Of a DNA stretch of 59,392 bases, positions 2,808-58,983 are shown one piece after another. Position numbers and translations under genes: made by a program. The DNA is taken from IMG/VR virus record IMGVR_UViG_3300045988_149079, positions 1 to 59,392 of that record; one strand, 5' to 3'. Numbering within the stretch: position 1 is the first letter of the stretch; each line of letters begins with the position of its first letter. Under the pieces are notes generated by a model, which saw only the letters and a list, made by a program, of their open reading frames with translations, did no database searches and was not told where the DNA came from. This DNA is from a virus.

Positions 2808-4577
2808 ATGAATATCGACGAAATTAAGAAGGCCATAGAGAATAACAGCAACTATTGGGAAAAGAGAGCTTTAGAAAATAAATTAAATATATTAGAAAAC
2901 GAAGAGGATTACCTTAAAAGAATATCTGATATATATGATAGAGCTAATAAAGATATTGACGATAAATTAGCTGCTGTTTACACTAGATATGCTAAAGAAA
3001 ATGGAATGACGTTAGATGAAGCATATAAACAATTACCTAAGGCTGTTGAGACTCAATATAAAAAAGATGTTATAGATTATGTTAATAAGGCTAAGAGTGG
3101 GGATGAAAGATGGAAACAATATCTCCTTAATCAAAGCCTTATGCATAAACATTCTGTATTGGATCAATTAAGAACTGAGTATAGAAATGTTATTTATAAT
3201 ATAGATATTGAGGAGACAGGTGGTAAATTCTTAGAAAAAATATTCATAAATGCCAACTATTATGCTCAGTATCAAGATAATAACGAAGCATTCGCAAGAG
3301 TGGATCAAAATAAGATACAAGCATTATTACAAGAGAATTGGTCTGGTGGAGGTAATTTTAGTCAACTTATTTGGAAAAATAAAGAACAATTAGTGGAAGC
3401 ATTAGATGATATAGTAGTTAGAGGATTTGCTACGGGAGAGAATTATGATAAGATGTCTGAGGAATTAGCTAAAAGAATGAATACTAGTAAATCTAATGCT
3501 AAAAGACTAATAATGACAGAATCGGCTAGAATGGATAATGAAGGTTTATTAGCTCATTATAAAGAAACAGAGGTTGAAAAACTAATATTCGTAGCAACAT
3601 TAGATATGAAAACATCTGAAATATGCAGAGCTATGGATGGACAAATAATTCCAATAAAAGATGCGCAAATAGGTTTAAATGTTCCTCCTCTACATCCATA
3701 TTGTAGATCAGTAATAAGTCCATATTATGAAGATAATGTTCCTGAGGATAGAATTTATAGAGATACTGAAACTAGTAAAAGCACTAAAGGAAATTATAGA
3801 ACTTATAAAGAATATTTAGAAGAAGAATTAGGAGATAGAGAACAAGCTGAAGCATTGGCAAGCACTAGAAATGATCTTCAGACATTGATAAAGGCAGTAG
3901 GAACAGTTCCAATACAGCCATCTTTACCAGTTATGGACACCTCATTAAAAATAAATACTGAATTAAATATAGAAAATAATGTAGGAAGAGAACCAATGGA
4001 AGATGAAGAAATAATTAAGGAAATAGAAGAGGCATTAGAAGAAGGATTAAATCTATACGGTAACGGTAGCGGTACAAGTGATGAATTCTTAATAGATAAA
4101 CTAGATAAGAATGGGGAATTAAAACCTAAAATAATTACTGATAAACAATACGATAAATTATTAAAGGAAATAGATAGTGTAGAAATATATAGAGGGGTTT
4201 CCATAAAAAATTATGATTTCTCTAAAGATAAGTTTATTGGTAAAGGATCTATGGGAAGTGGATTATACTTCACTAGTAAAAAAACAATAGCTCAATCATT
4301 TAGCGAAGAAGGAAATGGAACTATGATTAGTGCTATTATAGATAAAGATGCAAAAATCATAGAATTAGCTGATGTATATAGAATAGGTTCTAATTTATAT
4401 ACTAAAATGACAGGTAAGGATATTACCGATGGTATTATAAATCAGGATCCATTAGCATTGGTTTGCAGAAATTATGGATTGATAGCCTATTATAAAGGCT
4501 ATGATATAGTATATAATGGTCTTACAGAAGAATATTTAGTATTAAACAAGAAAATACTTAATATTCGTAAAAAATAA
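2808..4577 (+). CDS. Head morphogenesis protein (SPP1 gp7 / Mu F family) with an extra C-terminal domain
   Basis: Family signature 'PPLHPYCRSVISPY' in the middle of the protein. About 190 extra C-terminal residues include 'YRG' and 'GLYFTS' motifs. Confidence 0.8.
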   Translation: MNIDEIKKAIENNSNYWEKRALENKLNILENEEDYLKRISDIYDRANKDIDDKLAAVYTRYAKENGMTLDEAYKQLPKAVETQYKKDVIDYVNKAKSGDERWKQYLLNQSLMHKHSVLDQLRTEYRNVIYNIDIEETGGKFLEKIFINANYYAQYQDNNEAFARVDQNKIQALLQENWSGGGNFSQLIWKNKEQLVEALDDIVVRGFATGENYDKMSEELAKRMNTSKSNAKRLIMTESARMDNEGLLAHYKETEVEKLIFVATLDMKTSEICRAMDGQIIPIKDAQIGLNVPPLHPYCRSVISPYYEDNVPEDRIYRDTETSKSTKGNYRTYKEYLEEELGDREQAEALASTRNDLQTLIKAVGTVPIQPSLPVMDTSLKINTELNIENNVGREPMEDEEIIKEIEEALEEGLNLYGNGSGTSDEFLIDKLDKNGELKPKIITDKQYDKLLKEIDSVEIYRGVSIKNYDFSKDKFIGKGSMGSGLYFTSKKTIAQSFSEEGNGTMISAIIDKDAKIIELADVYRIGSNLYTKMTGKDITDGIINQDPLALVCRNYGLIAYYKGYDIVYNGLTEEYLVLNKKILNIRKK

Positions 4578-9067: not shown

Positions 9068-10429
9068 ATGGCAGGTGGAGTTTTCCAAAGTCAAAATAAG
9101 ATTAGACCAGGTGCTTATATAAAATTCCAAGGAGTTCCAGCACAAGATAACATTGTTGGTAGTCGTGGAGTTATAACAATGGCGGCACCAATCGGTTGGG
9201 GTCCAGAAGATGAACTAATTACTATTACAGTAAATGATTTATATAACAGTAATTTAGAGAAACTTATTGGATGCAATATTTATAATGCTAGGGCAAAACT
9301 AGTAAAAGCTGCACTAGAGAATGCTCATACTTTATTACTATATCGTGGAGATAAAGGTGGAACTAAGGCTACCGCAACATTATCAGTTGGTGAAAGCGTT
9401 AATCTAATTGTTACTGCTAAATATGCCGGTGCGATTGGTAATACCATTAGTGTTGGTGTTAAGCAAGCATATAGTGGTGGATACCAAGTTAACACTTACT
9501 TAGGTAGCACTCAAAAAGATTCACAAATAGTTTCCAATATTAGTGAATTAGTAAGTAATGACTTTGTAGATTTCAGTGGTACTGGTGTTATTGCTAAAGA
9601 TGTAGTTAATACATTACTAACTACAGGGGCAGATGGAACATTTACTACTCAAAACTATACAGAGTATTTAGCATTATTAAAAACTAAAGAATTTGATACT
9701 TTAGCAGCATATAACTTTGATGATGATGCAGAATTATTTAATGGTTCTGACATTAAAGATTTCATTCAAGAAATGAGAGAAACTAGAGGAATTAAATGTC
9801 AAGCAGTTATCAATAACTATGCGGCAGCTAATTACGAAGGTATTATTAGTACATATAACCAAGGAGTTAAGTATTCTGATGGTACTGAATTAAGTGGAGA
9901 GGAAATGGTAGTATGGGTTGCTGGTGCTACAGCAGGTGCCGATATTACAGAATCTAATACTTATAAAGTAGTTGCAAATGCCGTTGAAGTTACTGGTACC
10001 GTAATTGAAGATGACATTGAAACCTTAATTCAAACTGGATATTTAATTATTAGCCAAAGAAGAGATGGTGCAATCGTTATTGAAAAAGACATCAATACCT
10101 TAGTTAATCTTAGAGATGATGTTACTAAAGCATTCAAAGAAAATAAAGTTATTAGATTATTGGATGCAGTTGCTAATCACATTGCATTAGATTTCGAACA
10201 AAATTATATTGGTAAGGTTACTTCAGATAGTGCTGGTCTTTCATTATTCAAAGCAAGTATTATTACATACCTAACAGAGTTACAAACTAGTGGAGCAATT
10301 ATAAACTTCAATAGTTCAACAGACGTTTTGGTAGAAGCTGGAGAACAAGAAGATTCATTCTATTCTGAAATCTATATCCAACCAACATACAGTGTAGATA
10401 AACTATATATGGTTGTCAATGTTAGATAA
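9068..10429 (+). CDS. Contractile tail sheath protein (XkdK-like)
   Basis: 453 aa. The N-terminus 'MAGGVFQSQNKIRPGAYIKF' is typical of PBSX-type sheath proteins, and a tube gene follows. Confidence 0.85.
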   Translation: MAGGVFQSQNKIRPGAYIKFQGVPAQDNIVGSRGVITMAAPIGWGPEDELITITVNDLYNSNLEKLIGCNIYNARAKLVKAALENAHTLLLYRGDKGGTKATATLSVGESVNLIVTAKYAGAIGNTISVGVKQAYSGGYQVNTYLGSTQKDSQIVSNISELVSNDFVDFSGTGVIAKDVVNTLLTTGADGTFTTQNYTEYLALLKTKEFDTLAAYNFDDDAELFNGSDIKDFIQEMRETRGIKCQAVINNYAAANYEGIISTYNQGVKYSDGTELSGEEMVVWVAGATAGADITESNTYKVVANAVEVTGTVIEDDIETLIQTGYLIISQRRDGAIVIEKDINTLVNLRDDVTKAFKENKVIRLLDAVANHIALDFEQNYIGKVTSDSAGLSLFKASIITYLTELQTSGAIINFNSSTDVLVEAGEQEDSFYSEIYIQPTYSVDKLYMVVNVR

Positions 10430-24448: not shown

Positions 24449-24508
24449 AAAACTTTTTTGAGAAATTTTCAGTTTATGGTTGATTTTTTCCATAAAGTAG
24501 TATATAAT
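24449..24508 (+). promoter_or_regulatory. Early promoter-operator module, copy 1
   Basis: TTGATT (24480-85), N17, TATAAT (24503-08). Inverted repeat 'tttatgg' (24473-79) and 'ccataaa' (24490-96) brackets the -35. Near-identical to the copies at 52980 and 55888. Confidence 0.7.
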
Positions 24509-24542
24509 ATATAATGTAATAAGAGAAGGAGGAATGAGAAAA

Positions 24543-29264: not shown

Positions 29265-30284
29265 GTGATGATTGATGAAAATGGATACATAATTGAAGAA
29301 GAAGAATTAAATCAGGAATATGAAAGTTCTTATTTTCTAGTATTAACTAGCGAGGTATTAGAAGATGAAAGACTGACTGATTTTCAAAAATTATTGTTTG
29401 CAGCTATTACTGGATTATGCAAACAAAGAGGTTATTGCTGGGCTAGCAATGATTATTTAGAAAAGAAACTACATAGAAAGGTAACTCAAGTTAGTACAGG
29501 AATTTCTAAATTGGTTGAATTAGGATATCTAAATAGAGAAATAGTTTATAAAAGAAAGCAAGAAGCAAATGGAAAAATAGTTACTACTAAGCAAATATCT
29601 TATAGAAAATTGACTGTAAATATACCTAGAAAAAATGTAGAAAATAACGAAGACCAAAATAGGGGTATATTGGAAAATCAAAATAGGGGTATATTGGAAA
29701 ACCAAAACCAAATAAATAATAATATAATAAATAATTATTCCAATAATAAATTATTACATAATTTATCATCGGTTGAGCAGCAAGCAGCATCAACAGAAAT
29801 GGATATAAAAGATAATGATTATTTAGAAGAAAATAAAATTAAAAAGGATGATGTTGGTGATGTTGTTTTAGAGGATAATCTGAATAAAGATTCTAAAAAC
29901 GCGCCCGCCGCTCCCGCAGCAAAGCCTAAAGGAGGATTAGCACCACTTATAGATGAAATCGATAATTTCTTTAGTAAAGAAACTTATCCAGATATAAATA
30001 CAGCACTTAATCAATATCTACATTGTTACATTGGTTGCAGAAGATTACCTAGTTTAGAAAAATGGAAAGGTATGTTAAAAGATCTTATAGAATATTCTAG
30101 TTCAGTTATACCAGGAACTTCTGGTAAAAAAATAAATAGAGGAAAGGCTTTAATAATTATTGAGAAGGCAAGTAAAGGAAAAGATGGAGCACCGTTTACC
30201 GAATTCGATAACTTGTTTGGAAGTGAAGGAAATGAGATGGAACCTCAGTTTAATTTAAACCAAGAATTCAAAAAAGGCTTTTAA
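29265..30284 (+). CDS. Replication initiator / replisome organiser (winged-helix N-terminal domain, putative)
   Basis: 'FQKLLFAAITGLCKQRGYCWASNDYLEKKL...VSTGISKLVELGYLNREIVY' is winged-helix-like. Tandem iterons lie inside the gene, which sits upstream of the loader, helicase and primase genes. Confidence 0.5.
   Translation: MMIDENGYIIEEEELNQEYESSYFLVLTSEVLEDERLTDFQKLLFAAITGLCKQRGYCWASNDYLEKKLHRKVTQVSTGISKLVELGYLNREIVYKRKQEANGKIVTTKQISYRKLTVNIPRKNVENNEDQNRGILENQNRGILENQNQINNNIINNYSNNKLLHNLSSVEQQAASTEMDIKDNDYLEENKIKKDDVGDVVLEDNLNKDSKNAPAAPAAKPKGGLAPLIDEIDNFFSKETYPDINTALNQYLHCYIGCRRLPSLEKWKGMLKDLIEYSSSVIPGTSGKKINRGKALIIIEKASKGKDGAPFTEFDNLFGSEGNEMEPQFNLNQEFKKGF
29655..29702 (+). repeat. Two tandem 24-bp direct repeats (candidate origin iterons)
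   Basis: 'caaaataggggtatattggaaaa[t/c]' x2 (23 of 24 identical) plus a partial third 'caaaac', followed by a very AT-rich stretch. Confidence 0.85.
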
Positions 30285-30865
30285 TGACTTTAGAGGAAAG
30301 GAATAAAAAGGTTGAAGAAAATCTTCCTTTAGTTACATTTTGTTTAAAGAAACTAGGGAAGGATTTTAATGAAGATTATTTCCAACAAGGTGTTTTAGAG
30401 TTAATAAGATGTGTTAATAATTTCGATGAAAGTAAAGGAATTGCTTTTTCAACATATGCAGTAAAAAATATTAAGCTTTACTTAAAAGAATATATTATGA
30501 GAGATAAAGTATTAAAACCAAAAAGATGGGGAGGTACAGCAAAAGTTTATTCTCCTCCTTGCGATAGTTTTGATGAAGTTATTTATAATCAAGGAGGAAA
30601 TGAAATAAAACTTGGCGACACTGTAGCAGATAGAAGATTTGATGATAATGTTTTGGAAGGAAAAGAGTTTCTATGGGAATTGGATCTTTTAGTAACTAAA
30701 AAACTTATAACTCAATTAGAACTTGACATATTCTTAGAATATTACATGAATGGTTTAACTAAAACAATTATTTGTAAGAAATATAAGTTGGATAGAAGAT
30801 TTGTTAGTGATGCAATAAATAATACTATGAACATAGTCAGAAATAATTTATCGTATAATGATTAA
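30284..30865 (+). CDS. Sigma-70-family factor (phage-encoded), no. 1
   Basis: Region 2-like 'GIAFSTYAVKNIKLYLKEYI' and a C-terminal HTH-like 'LTKTIICKKYKLDRRFVSDAINNTMNIV'. Confidence 0.65.
   Translation: MTLEERNKKVEENLPLVTFCLKKLGKDFNEDYFQQGVLELIRCVNNFDESKGIAFSTYAVKNIKLYLKEYIMRDKVLKPKRWGGTAKVYSPPCDSFDEVIYNQGGNEIKLGDTVADRRFDDNVLEGKEFLWELDLLVTKKLITQLELDIFLEYYMNGLTKTIICKKYKLDRRFVSDAINNTMNIVRNNLSYND
30851..30859 (+). promoter_or_regulatory. Conserved TCGTATAAT promoter-like element (inside the 3' end of the sigma gene)
   Basis: Exact 9-mer, 21 nt upstream of ATG 30881. Confidence 0.45.
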
Positions 30866-37681: not shown

Positions 37682-38614
37682 ATGAAACCACGTTTTGATT
37701 TATACTTTGCAGGATATTGTAATGATGAAATTACTAAGTTAATAATTGAAAATGATTTTAATCAGTTGCTATCTTATGTAAACGAATATAAGAAAATACC
37801 TTTCTATATGGAGGCCAAGAAAAATGGTTGGAAAGGTAAGTTACTTATAGATTCGGGAGCATTTAGTATTCATAAAAGTGGAAAAACGGCGGATGTAGAT
37901 GCTTATATAGAATTTCTAAATAAGAATCATGAATATTTAGATTATTATATTCAATTAGATGATATTCCTGGTAAATGGGGACAACCAAAAACAGAAGAAC
38001 AAAAAAGAGTTAGTCCTATAAAAACATGGGAAAATTATTTATATATGAGATCTAAATTAGTAGAACCTAAAAAACTATTACCAGTTTTCCATCAAGGAGA
38101 AGATTTCAAATATTTAAGACAAATGTTGGAATATAGAGACGAAAATGGAGAGCCAATTGATTACATGTGTATATCAAGTAATAAAGAAATAAATGCTAAT
38201 AGAAGATTAGAATGGTATAAAAGATGTTATGAAGAAATTCAAAAAAGCAGTAATCCAAACATTAAAACTCATTCCTTAGGAACACAAAGTGAAAAACATT
38301 GCGAAAAGATTCCATTTACAAGTGTTGATGCTACATCTTGGATAATGACTGGAGCTAATGGTAACTTGTATACTAAATGGGGATCTAAAACAATAAGCGA
38401 TATGCAAAAAGGAAAGAAGAAAAATGTTATAAATGATAGAAGCTTTGAAGTATTCAAAAATTATGTAGAAGAAAATGGATTTACAGTAGAAGATCTAGCT
38501 AATAAAAGTGACGAAAGAGTAAAATGGAATTGCTTATATCTTGGTAAATGGGCTAGAGATGTAAGAGAATATAAAGGCCCTAAATCATTCAAAAATAATG
38601 GGAGGTTATTTTAA
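37682..38614 (+). CDS. dpdA: DpdA-like DNA (7-deazaguanine) transglycosylase
   Basis: 310 aa with 'LLIDSGAFSIH' near the N-terminus, adjacent to queC/D/E and folE. Confidence 0.6.
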   Translation: MKPRFDLYFAGYCNDEITKLIIENDFNQLLSYVNEYKKIPFYMEAKKNGWKGKLLIDSGAFSIHKSGKTADVDAYIEFLNKNHEYLDYYIQLDDIPGKWGQPKTEEQKRVSPIKTWENYLYMRSKLVEPKKLLPVFHQGEDFKYLRQMLEYRDENGEPIDYMCISSNKEINANRRLEWYKRCYEEIQKSSNPNIKTHSLGTQSEKHCEKIPFTSVDATSWIMTGANGNLYTKWGSKTISDMQKGKKKNVINDRSFEVFKNYVEENGFTVEDLANKSDERVKWNCLYLGKWARDVREYKGPKSFKNNGRLF

Positions 38615-39327
38615 TGAAAAAAGTGTTATTATATAGTGGAGGAATGGATAGTTGGTTAATTAGTCATATTTGGAAACCAGATATGAAGGTATATGTTAAT
38701 ATGCACACTAGATATTCTGAAGAAGAAATAAAAAGAATTAAGGAATTAAATGAAGATGTTACAATTATAGATTTTCCGTTAGGTCAATGGGAAAGAGAAG
38801 ATGCTATTATTCCATTAAGAAATCTATATTTAGTTATGGCTATATGTAATTTAACTGGATCTGAAGATATAGATATTTGTTTAGGAGCTACAGCAGGAGA
38901 TAGAGTATTAGATAAAAGTCCAGAATTTGCAGAAAAAGCAACTGAATTATTAAATTATTTATATCAACCACAACATTGGATACCAGAAGGTAAAAAGGTT
39001 AGAGTCAATATTGATTTTAAATCTAAAACTAAAACAGAACTAATCGAAGAGTTTATAAAACAAGGTGGAGATATCAACGAAGCATTTAATAGATCATTTA
39101 GTTGTTATAATCCAGTAGATGGACATGAATGTTGGCAATGTAAACCTTGCTTTAGAAAGTTTGTTAGTTTTGCTTTAAATGGTATGGAATTTCCAGAAGA
39201 AGTTAGTAATACAGCATTAGATTACATTCAAAGAGAAATTGAGCCTCAAATAGATAATGGAACTTATGGTAGAGCTCATGAAGAAGAAGAAATTAAAAAG
39301 GTATTGAAATTATATGGCAGAAGGTAG
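38614..39327 (+). CDS. queC: 7-cyano-7-deazaguanine synthase (QueC-like, divergent)
   Basis: PP-loop 'LLYSGGMDSW' and a C-terminal Cys cluster 'SCYNPVDGHECWQCKPC'. Confidence 0.7.
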   Translation: MKKVLLYSGGMDSWLISHIWKPDMKVYVNMHTRYSEEEIKRIKELNEDVTIIDFPLGQWEREDAIIPLRNLYLVMAICNLTGSEDIDICLGATAGDRVLDKSPEFAEKATELLNYLYQPQHWIPEGKKVRVNIDFKSKTKTELIEEFIKQGGDINEAFNRSFSCYNPVDGHECWQCKPCFRKFVSFALNGMEFPEEVSNTALDYIQREIEPQIDNGTYGRAHEEEEIKKVLKLYGRR

Positions 39328-39694
39328 AAGACATATAATAGCGGTAGATTTCGATGGTACATTAACCGAGAAATCTCCCTACCCTATAATGGGCAAAATA
39401 AGAGAAGATGCTATAAAGTATATAAATAAATTATATAATGACGGATATCTTTTGGTTCTATGGACATGTAGATCAGGAGATTTCTTAGAAGAAGCTATAA
39501 ATGCGTTAAAGGAGGCTAGAATATTTCATTGCTTTACTTTTGTAAACGAAGATGGATTAGGAAATAGTTCCAGAAAGATTGTAGCAGCCTTTTATATAGA
39601 TGACAGATCCATCATGAAAGACATTGATTGGGAAGAAATATATAATTACATTAAAAATAATATTTCCGTTAAAATGGGAGGAAAAAATGAATAA
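39314..39694 (+). CDS. HAD-superfamily phosphatase-like protein
   Basis: Motif I 'IAVDFDGTLT'. 126 aa. Confidence 0.55.
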   Translation: MAEGRRHIIAVDFDGTLTEKSPYPIMGKIREDAIKYINKLYNDGYLLVLWTCRSGDFLEEAINALKEARIFHCFTFVNEDGLGNSSRKIVAAFYIDDRSIMKDIDWEEIYNYIKNNISVKMGGKNE

Positions 39695-40079
39695 AAAAGT
39701 ATATACTTGGAAAGATGTTGAAGATTATATCAACAATGTTTCTAAAAGAATTAAAGAGGAAGTCAATTTAGACGAATGTCCTGGAATATTTACATTTCTA
39801 AGAGGAGGATTAGTTTTAGCAGTAATGCTATCTCATAAATTAGACTTACCTATATTATCAAATCCAGCTAAGAATTGTATCATCATAGATGATATATGCG
39901 ATACTGGTATAACATTAAAGAAATATTCAGAAGAAAAATCTAGGAAAAATTATTTTATAACAACTATGTTGGTTCAAGAAGATCAGTTATCTGAAACAGC
40001 AGAATATAATTGTGTTGTAGATTATTTCGAATATATTAAGCATAAAGATTGGGTTGTGTACCCTTGGGAGATGGAATAG
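39687..40079 (+). CDS. Type I phosphoribosyltransferase (xanthine/guanine PRTase-like)
   Basis: Start moved to ATG 39687 (SD 'gggagg'). PRPP-binding loop 'CIIIDDICDTGITL'. The C-terminal 'WVVYPWE' is Gpt-like. Confidence 0.65.
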   Translation: MNKKVYTWKDVEDYINNVSKRIKEEVNLDECPGIFTFLRGGLVLAVMLSHKLDLPILSNPAKNCIIIDDICDTGITLKKYSEEKSRKNYFITTMLVQEDQLSETAEYNCVVDYFEYIKHKDWVVYPWEME

Positions 40080-40080
40080 T

Positions 40081-40287
40081 ATGAATATAGAATTATTAGG
40101 CTTATTAGCCACATTATTTATAGTATTAGCTTTTTGTTTTAATGATAAAAAACTAATAAGATTATTTGATTCTATTGGAGCATTATTATTTGTAATATAT
40201 GGTTTAATAACAGGAGCTTTAAGTGTTTGGATATTAAATGCTATACTAATAATAGTAAATGCTTATAAAATCATAAAAAAGAAATAA
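40081..40287 (+). CDS. Small integral membrane protein (68 aa, 2-3 TM)
   Basis: Start ATG 40081. Hydrophobic segments 'LLGLLATLFIVLAFCF' and 'IGALLFVIYGLITGALSVWILNAILIIV'. Confidence 0.55.
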   Translation: MNIELLGLLATLFIVLAFCFNDKKLIRLFDSIGALLFVIYGLITGALSVWILNAILIIVNAYKIIKKK

Positions 40288-40290
40288 ATA

Positions 40291-40299
40291 TCGTATAAT
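40291..40299 (+). promoter_or_regulatory. Conserved TCGTATAAT promoter-like element
   Basis: Exact 9-mer, 19 nt upstream of ATG 40319 (queD). Confidence 0.5.
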
Positions 40300-40318
40300 A
40301 TTAGTGAGGAGGAAAATT

Positions 40319-40768
40319 ATGGAAAAAGTAAGAATTACAAGACATGAAGAGTTTGAAACAGCTCATTTATTGCCTCATTATGATGGTGGTTGTGGAAATC
40401 TTCATGGCCATAGTTACAAAATTGAAGTAACTGTGGAAGGTCCAAGAGGTAATGTACCATTCGATATGGTTATGGATTTCAAGGATCTAAAGAAAGCTAT
40501 TAAAGCAGTTATACCAGATCATATGTTTGTTTACAAAGATGGAGATGAAATAAGCGAAAAAATAGCTAAAGTATTAGATGAATATAATCTTAAATATGTA
40601 AGATATCCATTCTTTACAACAGCAGAAAATATGGCTGGTTATTTTGCAGAATTGATTGATAATTATATTAAAGCTGAATTAGGTTATAGCGAAGTAGATG
40701 TAGTGGAAGTTAATCTTTGGGAAACTACAAATAGTCATGCTACTTGGAGGAAAGAAGACAATGAATAA
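40319..40768 (+). CDS. queD: 6-carboxy-5,6,7,8-tetrahydropterin synthase (QueD)
   Basis: 'FETAHLLPHYDGGCGNLHGHSY' is the QueD/PTPS signature. Confidence 0.8.
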   Translation: MEKVRITRHEEFETAHLLPHYDGGCGNLHGHSYKIEVTVEGPRGNVPFDMVMDFKDLKKAIKAVIPDHMFVYKDGDEISEKIAKVLDEYNLKYVRYPFFTTAENMAGYFAELIDNYIKAELGYSEVDVVEVNLWETTNSHATWRKEDNE

Positions 40769-41504
40769 TAAAACTATTCCAGTAGCTGAAATATTTGGTC
40801 CTACAATTCAAGGAGAAGGTCCAAATGTTGGTATAAAAACATTATTCGTAAGAGTAGCTGGTTGCGACTTTAAGTGTGCTTGGTGCGATAGTAAGTTTGC
40901 TTGGAAAATAGATGGTAATGTTAAAAGATATGATCCATATGATTTAGTAAGCGAAATAATAAATACATGCAGAGAAACAAATACAGCTAATGTAGTATTA
41001 ACTGGTGGTAACCCATGTCTATATGATTTCGATAAAGTTATAGACTTACTAAAGGATATTGGAATATCTATAGATGTAGAAACACAAGGAAGTATATTAC
41101 CAGATTGGTTATATAAAGTTGATCAATTAGTAATAAGTCCTAAAGCACCTAGTAGCGGACAAAAAGATGTTTATGATAATGTATTAAAATTCTTATCTAA
41201 TGAAGAAAAAGTACCAGTAGGTTATAATGTAGCTATAAAAATTCCAGTTTTTAATGAAGAAGATTTTAAGTTTGCGGAAAGATATTATGAATTAGTTCAA
41301 CAAGTAATTTGGAATACTAATGTAAATGCTAAGATGTATTTAAGTGTTGGAAATACTAATACTAATGAAGCAGGAGATATTAGTAAAAGAGTTTTATTAG
41401 ACTATGAATCCCTAATAAATAGAACTATGGAAAGTGGAATGAAAAAAGTTTATGTATTACCACAAGTACATACCTTAGTTTGGGGAAATAAGCAAGGAGT
41501 GTAG
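40761..41504 (+). CDS. queE: 7-carboxy-7-deazaguanine synthase (QueE, radical SAM)
   Basis: 'EIFGPTIQGEGPNVG' and the cluster 'CDFKCAWCDS'. Start ATG 40761 (SD 'ggagg'). Confidence 0.8.
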   Translation: MNNKTIPVAEIFGPTIQGEGPNVGIKTLFVRVAGCDFKCAWCDSKFAWKIDGNVKRYDPYDLVSEIINTCRETNTANVVLTGGNPCLYDFDKVIDLLKDIGISIDVETQGSILPDWLYKVDQLVISPKAPSSGQKDVYDNVLKFLSNEEKVPVGYNVAIKIPVFNEEDFKFAERYYELVQQVIWNTNVNAKMYLSVGNTNTNEAGDISKRVLLDYESLINRTMESGMKKVYVLPQVHTLVWGNKQGV

Positions 41505-41506
41505 AT

Positions 41507-42115
41507 ATGAAAGAGTTTAATTATGAAGCAGTGAAGTCTGCTACAAGAGATTTACTTATTGCTATGGGAGAGGATCCAGATAGAGAAGGATTAAAAGAAA
41601 CTCCTAGAAGAGTAGCTGGTTATTGGAAAGAATTATTAGAAGGAAATAATTACACTAATGCCGAAATAGCAGAAAAATTTTCAAAAGAATTTGAAGTTGG
41701 TTATGATCCAATGGTAACAGAATATATAAAAAATGTTTATAGTCATTGCGAACATCACTTAGCTTTAATGTTTAATGGTAATGTTATAGTTGGATATTTA
41801 CCAGTTAAAAATGAAAATGGAACATTCAAAGTATTAGGTTTAAGTAAGATAAATAGAATTGTTGATCTTTGTTCAAAAAGATTACAACTTCAAGAAAAAT
41901 TAGCTAGTGATATAGCAGAATGTATTTCTTTAGCTACTGGATCTAAAGAAGTTTATGTTAATTTACATATGAGTCATGGTTGCGTTTCTGCAAGAGGACC
42001 TAAGTCAGAATCTAATACAAATGTGACATATATGACAAAGGAATTAAGAGAAAATAAAGAATGCAGAAATGAATTCGAAAGAAAAGCTACTGAAATGATT
42101 TTAAGAAATAAATAA
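41507..42115 (+). CDS. folE: GTP cyclohydrolase I (FolE)
   Basis: 'DPDREGLKETPRRVA' and 'SHCEHHL' are FolE signatures. Confidence 0.85.
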   Translation: MKEFNYEAVKSATRDLLIAMGEDPDREGLKETPRRVAGYWKELLEGNNYTNAEIAEKFSKEFEVGYDPMVTEYIKNVYSHCEHHLALMFNGNVIVGYLPVKNENGTFKVLGLSKINRIVDLCSKRLQLQEKLASDIAECISLATGSKEVYVNLHMSHGCVSARGPKSESNTNVTYMTKELRENKECRNEFERKATEMILRNK

Positions 42116-52981: not shown

Positions 52982-53039
52982 AACTTTTTTAAGAAATTTT
53001 AATTTTATGGTTGATTTTTTCCATAAAATATTATATAAT
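52980..53039 (+). promoter_or_regulatory. Early promoter-operator module, copy 2
   Basis: TTGATT (53011-16), N17, TATAAT (53034-39). Inverted repeat 'tttatgg' (53004-10) and 'ccataaa' (53021-27). Confidence 0.7.
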
Positions 53040-53072
53040 TAAAATGTAATTAAAAGAAAGAAGGTTTTACAC

Positions 53073-54887: not shown

Positions 54888-55182
54888 TATGAGAAGATTA
54901 GCTTATTTATTAGATAAATATTTAGTACCTACATTATTATCAATAATCTTAATAATTTGCGTATATGGTATATTTATTAAGATAGATAATAATAAATTAA
55001 AGGAACAAAATACTGAATTAAAAGTAAAAGTATCTGAATTAGAAACCAATAATAAAGATCTAAATAATCTTGTTATAGAAAGAAATAATGAGATATATAG
55101 ATTAAAAATGATTGCTGAAGAATGGAAAGAATTATTCTATACAGAAATAGATTTTCATCCATATGAAGGACCTGAATGGTAA
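54877..55182 (+). CDS. Membrane-anchored coiled-coil protein
   Basis: TM 'LVPTLLSIILIICVYGIFI' followed by a coiled coil. Alternative start ATG 54889. Confidence 0.5.
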   Translation: MEDNMRRLAYLLDKYLVPTLLSIILIICVYGIFIKIDNNKLKEQNTELKVKVSELETNNKDLNNLVIERNNEIYRLKMIAEEWKELFYTEIDFHPYEGPEW

Positions 55183-55306
55183 AATAACATATAATAGTAA
55201 TATTCGGTTGTTAGTAGTAATGGCGCTTATAAACGTATAGTATGCTAACGTAAAAAGGCTAAAGTAATAGGGGCACCATCCTTTTCCGATATATTCTCTC
55301 ATTATA

Positions 55307-55397
55307 TAAGCCGGTGGTGGAATAAAGACACGCAAGGAGCAATTGTGAGGTATCAGTAATGACCTCGTGGGAGTATTAAATCTCTTCCGGCTTACCA
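55307..55397 (+). ncRNA. Cloverleaf-like sub-domain closed by an 8-bp helix and followed by ACCA
   Basis: 'taagccgg' (55307-14) pairs with 'ccggctta' (55387-94), followed by 'cca'. Internal hairpins include 55346-51/55362-67. The T-loop and anticodon loop are non-canonical. Confidence 0.35.
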
Positions 55398-55729
55398 AAT
55401 AAGGTATCTACTATCAATAAGTTTTCTAGATAAACTTGATAGAGTTATAGATATAGGTGAGGCTTATCGGTGTACCTGCTGGTGATAAGGCGAAGCAGAT
55501 GGCAGTGAATTCATACTTAATGAATCGACTTTTGGATCGAAGGACGTTAGCAAGATCACAGTTTCCTAAGGTTAAGATTTAAGAACCCGAGGGTCCTAAT
55601 GCTAGACAGGTATGAGCATTCCCTTACTAATAGGGCATATTAGTTGAAATAACAATTTATCACTGACTTATGGAAAGACATATACGTCAGCTCACCTACC
55701 AGGACTAAAAACAAGGTAGGGTTGCCTAT

Positions 55730-55824
55730 GGGTATGTAGCTTAAGGGTAAAGCTTGTATCGTAATAACTGGGAACATGATACTTAATGCCACGGTTGATA
55801 TCAGTTCGAATCTGATCATACCCC
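55730..55824 (+). tRNA. tRNA-like element (canonical acceptor, D and T arms; no canonical anticodon arm)
   Basis: Acceptor 'gggtatg' (55730-36) / 'cataccc' (55817-23). D arm 'gctt-aagggta-aagc'. T arm 'atcag-ttcgaat-ctgat' (55800-16). 44 nt lie between the D and T arms, and I could not find a 5-7-5 anticodon hairpin there. Confidence 0.45.
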
Positions 55825-55840
55825 AACGTAAAACCTTTCT

Positions 55841-55877
55841 GGATATTAGCATATAGATCTAATATCCACTTTTTTTG
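55841..55877 (+). terminator. Rho-independent terminator ending the ncRNA/early unit
   Basis: 'ggatattag' (55841-49) pairs with 'ctaatatcc' (55859-67), followed by 'actttttttg'. Confidence 0.8.
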
Positions 55878-55887
55878 CCAAAAAATT

Positions 55888-55947
55888 AAAACTTTTTTAA
55901 GAAATTTTAATTTTATGGTTGATTTTTTCCATAAAATGGTATATAAT
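55888..55947 (+). promoter_or_regulatory. Early promoter-operator module, copy 3
   Basis: TTGATT (55919-24), N17, TATAAT (55942-47). Inverted repeat 'tttatgg' (55912-18) and 'ccataaa' (55929-35). Confidence 0.7.
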
Positions 55948-55979
55948 ATAATTGTAAATAAGAAAAGGAGAGATATTAA

Positions 55980-56210
55980 ATGAAAGCATTAGTTGAAATG
56001 ATAGGTAAAAGAAATGGTATTAGTGTTATTGATATTCATAATCAATATGAAAGCATTGATAATAATATTAAAAAATTAGTTGAGGCGGAAGTTAAGTTAT
56101 CAACAGATGAAATTATTATGGTAGTAATCAAATGGTGTCTAAATTTAAAGCTAAGAATGGAATACAAAACAATATTTAATTATATAACAGAAACAAGAGT
56201 TTTATATTAA
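55980..56210 (+). CDS. Hypothetical protein
   Basis: 76-aa ORF with SD 'aaaggagag'. Confidence 0.5.
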   Translation: MKALVEMIGKRNGISVIDIHNQYESIDNNIKKLVEAEVKLSTDEIIMVVIKWCLNLKLRMEYKTIFNYITETRVLY

Positions 56211-57540: not shown

Positions 57541-58983
57541 ATGAGCATACTAGATAAAATAAACGATTATTATAAACAAAAGCAAGCCATGGTAGTAGAG
57601 AATCCTGTTAATAGTAAAGTAGTAGATCTTAATGAAGTAATAGGAAGGGAATATGAACCTTTCTGGAATAGTAGAGAACGTTATAGAGCAGTTAAAGGAT
57701 CGCGTGGATCTAAGAAGTCAAAAGTAACTGCATTATTTTATATAGCAAATATGATGGAATTTCCTATGTCTAATTTAGTAGTAATAAGAAAGAGATTAAA
57801 CACTCATCGTACTTCTACTAGAAATGATTTGATATGGGCGATAAATAGATTAGGAGTAAAATCAGATTGGAATTATTCAGATTCAGATAATGGTGAATTA
57901 ACTATTACTAGAATAAGTACTGGACAGAAAATATTCTTTCGTGGTTTTGATGATCCATTAAACATAACATCATTTAGTGTTAGTGTAGGTGTTTTATGTT
58001 GGGCTTGGTTTGAGGAAGCATTCCAGATAGAGTCAGAAAGTGATTTCGATAAAGTAGATAAATCTATTCGTGGTAAAATGCCAGATGGAAGTGAATTAGC
58101 AGATCATGGCTTATGGAAACAAATAACATTTACATTCAATGCTTGGTCAGATAAAAGCTGGTTAAAGAGAAGATTCTTTGATAAATGTCCTGATGTTAAC
58201 ATAACGGAAGAAGAATTAGATGAATATAATAATGGGACAAGGAAACGAATAAATAAATGGGCCGTATGTAAGAGAGAAAACATATTCGTAGGTACTACTA
58301 TATATGCTTGTAACGAATTCTTAGATCAGGATGACTTAGATCTATTTAATTTAACAAGAGTTAATAATCCAATAGCATTCCAAATAGAAGGTCTTGGAAA
58401 CTGGGGTATTAGTGAAGGACAAATCTTTAGAAATTGGTCAGTATTAGACTTCGATTATAAGAAAATAATAAAACAATCAGTTAACATAAATGGTAAAACT
58501 AAGTTGAAATTAAGATTTGGATTAGACTTCGGTTATACAAATGACGTGGCGGCGTTAATAAGTTGTATAGTAGATGAAGAGAACATGAGAATATGGATCT
58601 TCGACGAATTCTATAAAGTAGGTCAAACTAACTTAATGTTATCTAATGTAATAAAGTATAAAGGCTATTCAAAGGAAGTTATTAGATGCGATTCTGCAGA
58701 GCCAAAGAGTATAGATGAATTAAAATATTACGGTATTACTAGAGCTATAGCAGCGTTAAAAGGTAAAGATAGTATAAGACAAGGTATTGGTAGATTAAAA
58801 GATTATAAGATATATGTACATCCTTCTTGCGAAAATACTATAATAGAATTTAACAACTATGTTTGGAAGAAAGATAAAGATACAGAGAAATTATTAAACG
58901 AACCAATAGAAGAATACAACCACCTTATGGATGCGTTAAGGTATGCTACTGAAGGAATAAGAGTTAGAACATTTAGATTCTAG
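57541..58983 (+). CDS. terL: Terminase large subunit (PBSX/XtmB family)
   Basis: Walker A-like 'KGSRGSKKSKV', Walker B 'CWAWFEEA', nuclease acidic motifs 'GLDFGYTNDVAA' and 'NHLMDALRY'. Confidence 0.9.
   Translation: MSILDKINDYYKQKQAMVVENPVNSKVVDLNEVIGREYEPFWNSRERYRAVKGSRGSKKSKVTALFYIANMMEFPMSNLVVIRKRLNTHRTSTRNDLIWAINRLGVKSDWNYSDSDNGELTITRISTGQKIFFRGFDDPLNITSFSVSVGVLCWAWFEEAFQIESESDFDKVDKSIRGKMPDGSELADHGLWKQITFTFNAWSDKSWLKRRFFDKCPDVNITEEELDEYNNGTRKRINKWAVCKRENIFVGTTIYACNEFLDQDDLDLFNLTRVNNPIAFQIEGLGNWGISEGQIFRNWSVLDFDYKKIIKQSVNINGKTKLKLRFGLDFGYTNDVAALISCIVDEENMRIWIFDEFYKVGQTNLMLSNVIKYKGYSKEVIRCDSAEPKSIDELKYYGITRAIAALKGKDSIRQGIGRLKDYKIYVHPSCENTIIEFNNYVWKKDKDTEKLLNEPIEEYNHLMDALRYATEGIRVRTFRF

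Follow-up and report, generated by a model that had tools for sequence, protein, structure and literature searches.

What is carried by positions 55183 to 55979 of a phage genome when no gene can be recognized there? The question is raised by IMG/VR record IMGVR_UViG_3300045988_149079, of which positions 1–59,392 were analysed (59,392 nt, hereafter the window; coordinates refer to the window unless a locus label beginning with L is given). An initial annotation, made from the sequence alone, took the stretch for a single ornate RNA of ~680 nt, possibly of the ROOL or GOLLD kind, or else for a new RNA class. The gene-free stretch is a genuine non-coding, structured and conserved + strand RNA. 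It holds two undescribed RNA motifs, termed modules A and C. Judged by a kissing-loop signature, C takes its functional place next to the ornate RNAs already known from phages, as a new and smaller variant. We consider it probable that the whole constitutes an island of separable non-coding RNA modules with which an early operon closes at its 3′ end, and in which tRNA-like units serve as punctuation and module C is a self-associating scaffold or decoy.

Non-coding character of the locus

On the + strand, open reading frames (ORFs) end at 55182, the stop of a 101-aa FtsL/DivIC-like gene, and restart at 55980; a 41-aa ORF is the only one on this strand within the gap, and four ORFs lie on the − strand (Table 1). 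The longest ORFs in 15 homologous intergenic regions measure 29–81 aa and are consistent neither in strand nor in position. The earlier statement that 55183–55979 contains no credible ORF is borne out by the ORF list and by these regions: no protein-coding frame is conserved among the homologues, and indels and module swaps disrupt the frames. A sharp rise in G+C had also been noted, and the content is indeed 0.385–0.40 across 55200–55800 (200-nt windows) as compared with 0.18–0.31 in the flanks. Folding energy alone is uninformative: the minimum free energy (MFE) of the whole 691 nt has a z-score of +0.21 for the + strand and of −0.92 for the − strand, and thermodynamics would not have revealed the structures of the island.

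More than 25 related loci were gathered by three routes, namely retrieval from IMG/VR based on the large terminase (TerL), DNA-pattern scans, and a collection of contigs encoding homologues of the upstream 101-aa protein. Comparison of these loci by blastn and nhmmer divided the region into units A (55203–55292), B (55295–55399), C (~55398–55725) and G (55730–55824), a terminator and the next promoter. Homologues from viromes were to be tested for covariation according to the initial annotation, and modules A and C gave covariation-supported helices.

Module C and its palindromic loop

Module C represents an undescribed class of RNA, ~320 nt in length. Its alignment has a mean column identity of 72% and consists of invariant blocks (AUAGAUAUAGGUGA, CGGUGUACC, AAGCAG and GGAAAGAC) between hairpins that vary in sequence while their pairing is kept. 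A near-invariant block reads ACAGUUUUGGAUAGUUUAGAUUUAAGAACUAGA in most homologues, the window copy differing at several positions. RNAalifold finds 56 pairs, and the tests cover 55 pairs in nine helices. At these, 93.9% of cells are paired, compared with 33–41% in slid controls; double changes occur at 23 of the 55 pairs (4–9 when slid), and on four of five measures none of 500 shuffles reaches what was observed. Of the paired cells, 11.4% are G·U and 0.3% A·C. This excess of G·U over A·C, which recurs in module A (14.9% against 1.9%), identifies the + strand as the RNA. Most of the helices drawn by eye in the initial annotation are genuine, and several can be placed on this alignment: 55509–14/55520–25 and 55598–603/55615–20 coincide with covariation-supported helices, 55663–67/55686–90 lengthens a covarying hairpin, 55695–700/55715–20 marks a hairpin conserved in position but not in sequence, and 55463–68/55484–89 is not kept in relatives.

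With selection acting on + strand RNA rather than on duplex DNA, as the G·U versus A·C asymmetry indicates, and with stems that covary while loops stay fixed, a DNA-level element beside the terminase genes (packaging site, origin or protein-binding palindromes) is barely credible, even though the locus lies close to the packaging module and contains the palindromes TCTAGA and GAATTC. The same low probability applies to a hidden protein gene: − strand ORFs of 70–88 aa do exist, but they are conserved in neither strand, position nor length, and the 88-aa one spans a module that is exchanged in close relatives.

The apical loop of hairpin P1a in module C contains a 6-nt palindrome in 11 of 11 distinct homologues. 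It reads UCUAGA in six (the window and five others), UGUACA in two and AGCGCU in three; UCUAGA and UGUACA differ by a double change that is symmetric, whereas in AGCGCU all six positions are altered. The chance of finding a 6-nt palindrome in a random loop of 7–12 nt is 3.5–11%. Palindrome switching served as a criterion for the symmetric kissing loops L9.3 of OLE and L21a of GOLLD, which were seen by cryo-electron microscopy (Kretsch et al., Nature 2025, PMC12286853). Since adjacent loop nucleotides cannot pair within one chain, switching is counted as intermolecular evidence, and on the strength of the loop sequences module C probably forms at least a homodimer through this palindrome.

Module C has so far been restricted to one clade of ~59-kb phages. 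A 17-mer taken from it retrieved 59 stretches from IMG/VR, of which only the clade members are real, and a pattern search returned 0 matches in JGI metagenomes and only 3 contigs, already known, in IMG/VR.

Module A

Module A is composed of a 7-bp helix P1 enclosing a 3-bp hairpin P2, and of a small 3′ hairpin P3; a helix AAAAGG/CCUUUU is also possible. The 19 distinct copies, aligned over 90 nt, share a mean identity of 88%, and RNAalifold together with pair counts gives 92.9% pairing as against 37–53% with the partner slid. Covariation is found in all three elements: P1 shows the pairs GC/CG/GU/UA and UA/CG/AU, two of its positions taking three to four pair types, P2 shows CG/UA/AU, and P3 shows GC/CG. 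The single-stranded blocks GUAAU, CUUAUAAAC, GUAAAAAGG and AGUAAUAG are invariant, and the 3′ end is CCA in 18 of the 19 copies, the window copy ending in CCG. A helix proposed earlier at 55253–58/55280–85 is partly conserved within the module (78.7% paired) and displays no covariation.

A covariance model of module A (R1) finds one copy per locus, no second copy in the window, and none in 66 more distant TerL loci. A pattern search of GTDB species genomes returned three chance matches, at least two of them inside coding sequence. Outside the setting of the window, a 44-kb phage (L081/L167) carries A alone between a gene for a putative membrane protein (by-eye translation) and small-ORF/lysin-like genes, and in L083/L168, a phage of 109 kb, tRNA-Ala(UGC), two long hairpin RNAs and a gene with a TROVE domain (Ro60-like) form an array with A at its head. 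This arrangement lies at ~2100–2610 (− strand) of L083, with the TROVE ORF at 529–2160 (−) and a tRNA-Trp just upstream. The two hairpin RNAs have paired 5′ and 3′ ends and look Y-RNA-like by eye, with no match to Rfam Y-RNA. Judged by where it occurs, module A is an independent unit. It is common to at least three phage groups and thereby offers a handle for finding further non-coding RNA arrays.

Tests for known RNA families

Rfam 15 was scanned with the whole window at the gathering score, with 55100–56000 at E ≤ 10 and relaxed filters, and with 11 homologous loci at E ≤ 1. Only tRNA matches were returned, the sole one in the window being that of module G. The covariance models of ROOL (RF03087) and GOLLD (RF01998) match neither the window nor the 11 loci, and that of OLE (RF01071) does not match the window. 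No Rfam match was obtained for transfer-messenger RNA (tmRNA), RNase P RNA, group I/II introns, 6S, SRP, T-box, known ribozymes or riboswitches; module A has none in the window or homologous loci, and module C none in any homologue. ARAGORN, run in its tRNA, intron, tmRNA and mitochondrial modes, reports no canonical tRNA or tmRNA in the window. By eye, likenesses to RNase P CR-I, SRP domain IV, T-box and the sarcin-ricin loop were considered and dismissed on account of unfitting order and context and of models that give no match.

The island is not a member of ROOL, GOLLD or OLE. Membership in families of that type, and in HEARO, raiA, tmRNA, RNase P or the introns, had been put forward for testing and finds no match at E ≤ 10, whereas the other suggestion, a new RNA class, agrees with the absence of module C from Rfam 15. 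The resemblance to ROOL and GOLLD that had been claimed in size, context and tRNA association survives for the phage setting and the tRNA-like neighbours but not for size.

Modular architecture

Modules A, B, C and G follow one another in this order in the window, with the intrinsic terminator behind them. Among relatives the architectures A-B-C-G, A-tRNAIle-C-G, A-C-D, C-D, A-D, A-E, A-E-tRNATrp-F-C-G′ and E-A-F-C are encountered, so that at least four units are shuffled independently, and in more distant relatives A and C stand together with D, E, F, G′, H and tRNA-Trp in many orders. The closest comparison is provided by L173, L175 and L177, whose upstream gene is 97–99% identical: A, most of C, G and the terminator are nearly unchanged, and the position of B is occupied by B in L177, by tRNA-Ile(UAU) in L173 and by extra modules including tRNA-Trp(CCA) in L175. 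Every copy of module C inspected downstream has a tRNA-like element on its 3′ side (that of L082 was not separately annotated). Judging by these exchanges, the slot of B is equivalent to tRNA genes, and the locus as a whole acts as an insertion slot for structured RNAs, in which it resembles the tRNA islands that house ROOL and GOLLD.

Such exchanges are hard to reconcile with one continuous ornate RNA of ~650–680 nt, the earlier view, in which A, B, C and G would be domains of a single molecule as in GOLLD, where tRNAs can be internal. That GOLLD linkers sometimes hold tRNAs is documented (PMC12286853), the order A ... C ... tRNA-like is frequent, and a single upstream gene and a single terminator flank the full set of units, no terminator being present inside the island. 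However, near-identical phages replace 55295–55399 by tRNA-Ile or other modules while A, C and G stay unchanged, C is present in L158 although A is missing, A is present without C in L157, L008, L002, L081 and L083 and is even found alone, and no long-range pairing between units was found. The island is thus probably not one RNA, and we rate the single-molecule account as unlikely.

The island of L173 is a mosaic: its tRNA-Ile (3408–3483) and the 5′ two-thirds of module C resemble the type of L152/L156, and the 3′ part from ~55665 onward is identical to the window, which points to recombination inside the RNA island. Of the units that recur in relatives, module D is a conserved RNA of ~185 nt, in which a large insert is framed by an acceptor-like stem of 7 bp and a T arm of canonical form (L133 7579–7765, L004 ~9370–9545, L002, L003, L152, L156, L157 and L158). 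It usually lies 3′ of C, one of its helices covaries (GAUGC/GCAUC versus GAUAC/GUAUC), and ARAGORN does not call it as tRNA or tmRNA. Other recurring families are E (~135 nt), F (a 100-nt tRNA-like RNA with 3′ ACCA) and H (a minihelix with T arm). The pentamer GUAAU recurs in predicted loops of A (55217, 55264), B (55356) and G (55761); its 2.5-fold enrichment in the window (as GTAAT) was judged not significant. Loops resembling GUAAUAAC are also present in modules D and E of relatives.

The tRNA-like modules B and G

Module B has an acceptor-like stem of 8 bp, AAGCCGG (55308–14) pairing with CCGGCTT (55387–93), which is the helix noticed earlier at 55307–14/55387–94. Three or four internal arms follow, including an anticodon-like arm (55347–51/55362–66) with a 10-nt loop, and a T-like loop of non-canonical form. 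By MFE the module folds into a cloverleaf-like structure (ΔG −25 kcal/mol, z = −1.7), and neither the Rfam tRNA model nor ARAGORN calls the module. It is identical in L177, and L153 and L154 have a short GCCGG...CCGGC-U-CCA hairpin at its position.

Module G corresponds to the tRNA-like module that had been seen near the end of the region and is recognized by the Rfam tRNA model (RF00005) with 42.8 bits against a gathering score of 29. Its acceptor stem, D arm and T arm are canonical, but 41 nt, comprising a 5-bp stem, a 17-nt loop and a long variable region, take the place of a 17-nt anticodon arm, so that the 5-bp anticodon stem with a 7-nt loop expected of a tRNA is not found. ARAGORN reports nothing by default and a tRNA only if a 10-nt 'intron' is allowed or the threshold lowered. 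Because of the aberrant anticodon arm, G is filed as tRNA-like and not as tRNA. It is near-identical in L173, L175 and L177; more distant relatives have other tRNA-like elements (D, G′, H) after module C instead.

These features invite the explanation that the island is a decaying phage tRNA cluster, with B and G as pseudo-tRNAs and the rest as spacer or leader devoid of a function of its own. Relatives do carry genuine tRNA-Ile, tRNA-Trp and tRNA-Ala in the island, and B and G keep acceptor and T-arm features without usable anticodon loops and are not conserved outside close relatives. For B and G such decay is possible. It is not for A and C, which are not tRNA-derived, show compensatory changes along with invariant loops, and are conserved across phages whose upstream protein is only 51–70% identical. 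The non-canonical tRNA-like families D, F, G′ and H moreover recur, with compensatory change in at least one helix (the covarying helix of D), which argues for selection. As an account of the whole island, decay is improbable.

Transcription context

The RNA region was described earlier as the 3′ end of an early transcription unit, and this agrees with a repeated promoter module, TTGATTTTTTCCATAAA..TATATAAT, of ~80 nt, which is found at 24480, 53011 and 55919 and is conserved in relatives. Given the copy near 53011, the RNA region is the untranslated 3′ end of that operon; the module probably marks host-sigma-dependent early operons. In its full length of ~80 nt, the module AAAACTTTTTTAAGAAATTTTAATTTTATGGTTGATTTTTTCCATAAA..TATATAAT was seen at 53011–53040 and 55919–55948, and the TTGATT-17-TATAAT core at 24480–24509. 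The promoter at 55919 is a downstream boundary and lies outside the RNA.

At the 5′ boundary, a TATAAT box may be a −10 element or a processing context, to judge from its sequence; no −35 hexamer is seen upstream of it. The block (A/C)ATATAAT-N(10-13)-TTGG is kept in relatives even with a different upstream gene (L154, L086, L153), and in L158 it stands immediately 5′ of module C. At the 3′ boundary, the strong + strand terminator placed earlier at 55841–77 was recovered at 55840–55876, with a stable stem-loop and a U tract (ΔG −10.4 kcal/mol, z = −3.4; 0/200 shuffles fold as well). It is conserved in L173, L175 and L177. A consensus scan missed it, presumably since its apical loop has 9 nt as a plain hairpin and the limit of the scan is 8.

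A cis-acting leader would be a different use of the same signals: A, perhaps with C, would influence how the early/late boundary ahead of the packaging genes is transcribed or how stable the RNA is there, for example by processive antitermination through the terminator at 55840–76. Processive antitermination is exemplified by the put RNA of phage HK022. Module A always comes first, right after the TATAAT box; in L081/L167 protein genes follow it immediately, and the large terminase gene comes straight after the island in several relatives. Nevertheless, we think little of its chances. A strong promoter at 55919 follows the terminator, so read-through is not needed in the window; A precedes tRNA or RNA genes far more often than ORFs; no alternative terminator/antiterminator pairing is seen; and a covarying 320-nt RNA with a palindromic loop is left unexplained.

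Table 1. Features at the RNA island and its boundaries (window coordinates)
Feature	Position	Strand	Description
TATAAT box	55190-55195	+	12-13 nt 5′ of invariant GG opening the RNA island
Module A	55203-55292	+	85-90-nt leader RNA motif; 19 distinct homologues (alignment A2)
Module B	55308-55397	+	tRNA-like; 3′ ACCA at 55394-97
Module C	~55402-55722	+	~320-nt structured RNA; 11-12 distinct homologues (alignment A3)
C helix	55404-10/55448-54	+	encloses hairpin P1a (55411-55442)
Palindromic apical loop UCUAGA of P1a	55425-55430	+	candidate symmetric intermolecular kissing loop
C helix	55490-96/55561-67	+	
C helix	55509-13/55521-25	+	
C helix	55526-32/55539-46	+	
C helix	55569-74/55583-88	+	
C helix	55598-603/55615-20	+	
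C helix	55625-31/55639-44	+	
C helix	55669-72/55679-82	+	GAAAGA loop
C 3′ hairpin	55693-55720	+	
Module G	55730-55824	+	95-nt tRNA-like element; no CCA encoded
Intrinsic terminator	stem-loop 55840-55868, U7 55870-55876	+	12 pairs, then C plus U7
Promoter of next operon	55919-55947	+	sigma-70-type TTGATT-17-TATAAT; scan score 10/12
ORF	55132-55398	−	88 aa
ORF	55464-55559	−	31 aa
ORF	55640-55852	−	70 aa
ORF	55692-55826	−	44 aa

A model for the RNA island

The favoured modular island can be formulated as the following pathway. Transcription of the + strand would start at the promoter near 53011, at the −10-like box at 55190, or at both, and would stop at the terminator 55840–55876. The tRNA-like units would then act as punctuation for host RNase P and the 3′-end tRNA-processing enzymes: RNase P would cut 5′ of B and G, maturation would trim the 3′ side at their acceptor ends, and all four units would come free as separate, stable RNAs. 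In an alternative, G would remain attached to C as a 3′ tRNA-like tail. Copies of module C would join through the symmetric kissing loop UCUAGA (6 bp) to form a dimer or a larger assembly, in the manner of OLE, ROOL and GOLLD. Early in infection, C would serve as a scaffold or decoy that engages some factor of the host or the phage, for which a link to tRNA or translation is most plausible.

Several points weigh against this model. The transcription, processing and stability of the island RNAs are predicted from sequence. Single-module MFE z-scores are not significant either, the terminator excepted. Within C, helix 55455–64/55469–77 never varies and is unproven, several long invariant blocks carry no covariation signal either way, and a pseudoknot 55473–78/55607–12 that was considered is paired in 78.8% and shows no compensatory change, so that it is unsupported. 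The homologues of C belong to one narrow phage clade, and the compensatory counts partly reflect shared ancestry, which the slid controls address in part only. The kissing loop UCUAGA of the window contains only two G-C pairs. Finally, B and G, like the terminator, have no homologues beyond close relatives, and B and G might be no more than tRNA genes in decay that do nothing themselves.

A bolder version, to which we give tentative and clearly lesser credence, regards module C as the founder of a self-assembling phage RNA class, a smaller counterpart of ROOL, GOLLD and OLE that is made early and cut by tRNA-processing enzymes out of an array punctuated by tRNA-like units, and module A as a second new class with the position of a leader. 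In that version C would form, by way of its palindromic loop, a symmetric dimer or cage that sequesters a translation- or tRNA-linked host factor or a defence factor, and A would mark, help to process or stabilize non-coding RNA arrays in several unrelated phage groups.

The phage and its relatives

The window represents approximately the whole genome, ~59 kb, of an uncultured, myovirus-like phage with a Firmicute-type endolysin, all genes of which lie on the + strand. Structural genes encode an SPP1-type portal, a MuF-like protein, a tail sheath and a tape measure protein; the Terminase_3 large terminase is located at 57541–58983, and replication is represented by PolA, DnaB, primase, RecA, sliding clamp and clamp loader. 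The endolysin domains, GH25/CW_7/LysM, point to a Gram-positive host. A sigma-70 region 2 protein encoded at 30284–30865 suggests phage-specific middle or late promoters, and a 7-deazaguanine synthesis cluster at 38614–42115 (QueC-like, phosphoribosyltransferase-domain protein, PTPS/QueD, radical-SAM QueE-like and GTP cyclohydrolase I) suggests hypermodified phage DNA.

Among INPHARED phages no DNA match to the window, near or distant, was found, and the TerL of the nearest isolates (Bacillus and Streptococcus phages) is <48% identical. The relatives derive from rumen, gut and faecal assemblies. The flanking proteins of 122 and 204 aa have no match in IMG/VR, and neighbouring small proteins have no family match except for a weak spanin/DivIC-like match of the upstream 101-aa protein; no gene for an RNA-related enzyme adjoins the RNA island. 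In several relatives (L152 2200–3244, L156 2360–3321, L157 1120–1769, L008–L010) the large terminase gene comes directly after the island, with no recognizable small-terminase gene between the two. A G+C-rich motif, AATCG..CGCGG, is conserved in the AT-rich spacer of these loci and may represent a late promoter or a signal for packaging.

Comparison with known systems

The tRNA cluster of phage T4 encodes the species 1 and 2 RNAs, stable non-tRNA RNAs that are co-transcribed with the tRNAs and owe their maturation to the tRNA-processing enzymes of the host. Their sequences show no relationship to those of the island, module C is far larger than they are, and processing of the window RNA is a prediction. 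A tRNA-like fold 3′ of a long non-coding RNA is known from MALAT1-mascRNA and from mitochondrial tRNA punctuation. By analogy, the tRNA-like fold 3′ of C could direct RNase P cleavage and so set the 3′ end of C; these systems are eukaryotic or organellar, and the analogy is mechanistic only. Bacterial Y RNA and its Ro partner (Rsr/TROVE) come to mind in L083/L168, where the array headed by A includes tRNA-Ala, hairpin RNA and TROVE, and implies that A travels with tRNA-mimic or RNA-quality-control cargo; no TROVE protein is among the scanned window proteins.

OLE touches the locus more directly. The first 119 positions of L011 (IMGVR_UViG_3300045988_050254; TerL 72% identical), at a contig end, contain the 3′ 120 nt of OLE (model positions 497–616) with 57.1 bits against a gathering score of 50 and a convincing alignment. 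This end lies at the locus equivalent to the island, upstream of three small genes and the terminase gene. To our knowledge, OLE has been described from bacterial chromosomes, and a phage-borne copy would be unusual. OLE resembles the island RNAs as a large structured RNA of Firmicutes, but differs by its ~610 nt, its residence in bacterial chromosomes and its Oap protein partners, no oap-like gene having been seen among the scanned window proteins. Its homodimer forms partly through a palindromic kissing loop (PMC12286853).

With ROOL and GOLLD the island shares a phage-encoded, non-coding nature, a multi-helix covarying structure and a location in or next to tRNA islands, here in the form of two tRNA-like elements in the window and genuine tRNA-Ile and tRNA-Trp in the islands of relatives; with ROOL, module C also shares the rumen or gut origin of its relatives. 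C bears the loop-palindrome signature of the kissing loops that join those assemblies (PMC12286853) and would by this token oligomerize. It differs from them by its size (~320 nt against ~580 and >800 nt), by its conserved blocks and by its confinement to one ~59-kb phage clade. Few widespread classes of RNA have a solved architecture but no known function, and ROOL and GOLLD, large structured phage RNAs next to tRNA islands, belong to them. Compact as it is, and with a clear, mutable dimerization signature, module C should suit experiment, and the swaps of cargo among near-identical phages, involving tRNAs, tRNA mimics and, in one relative, OLE, could show what these RNAs do.

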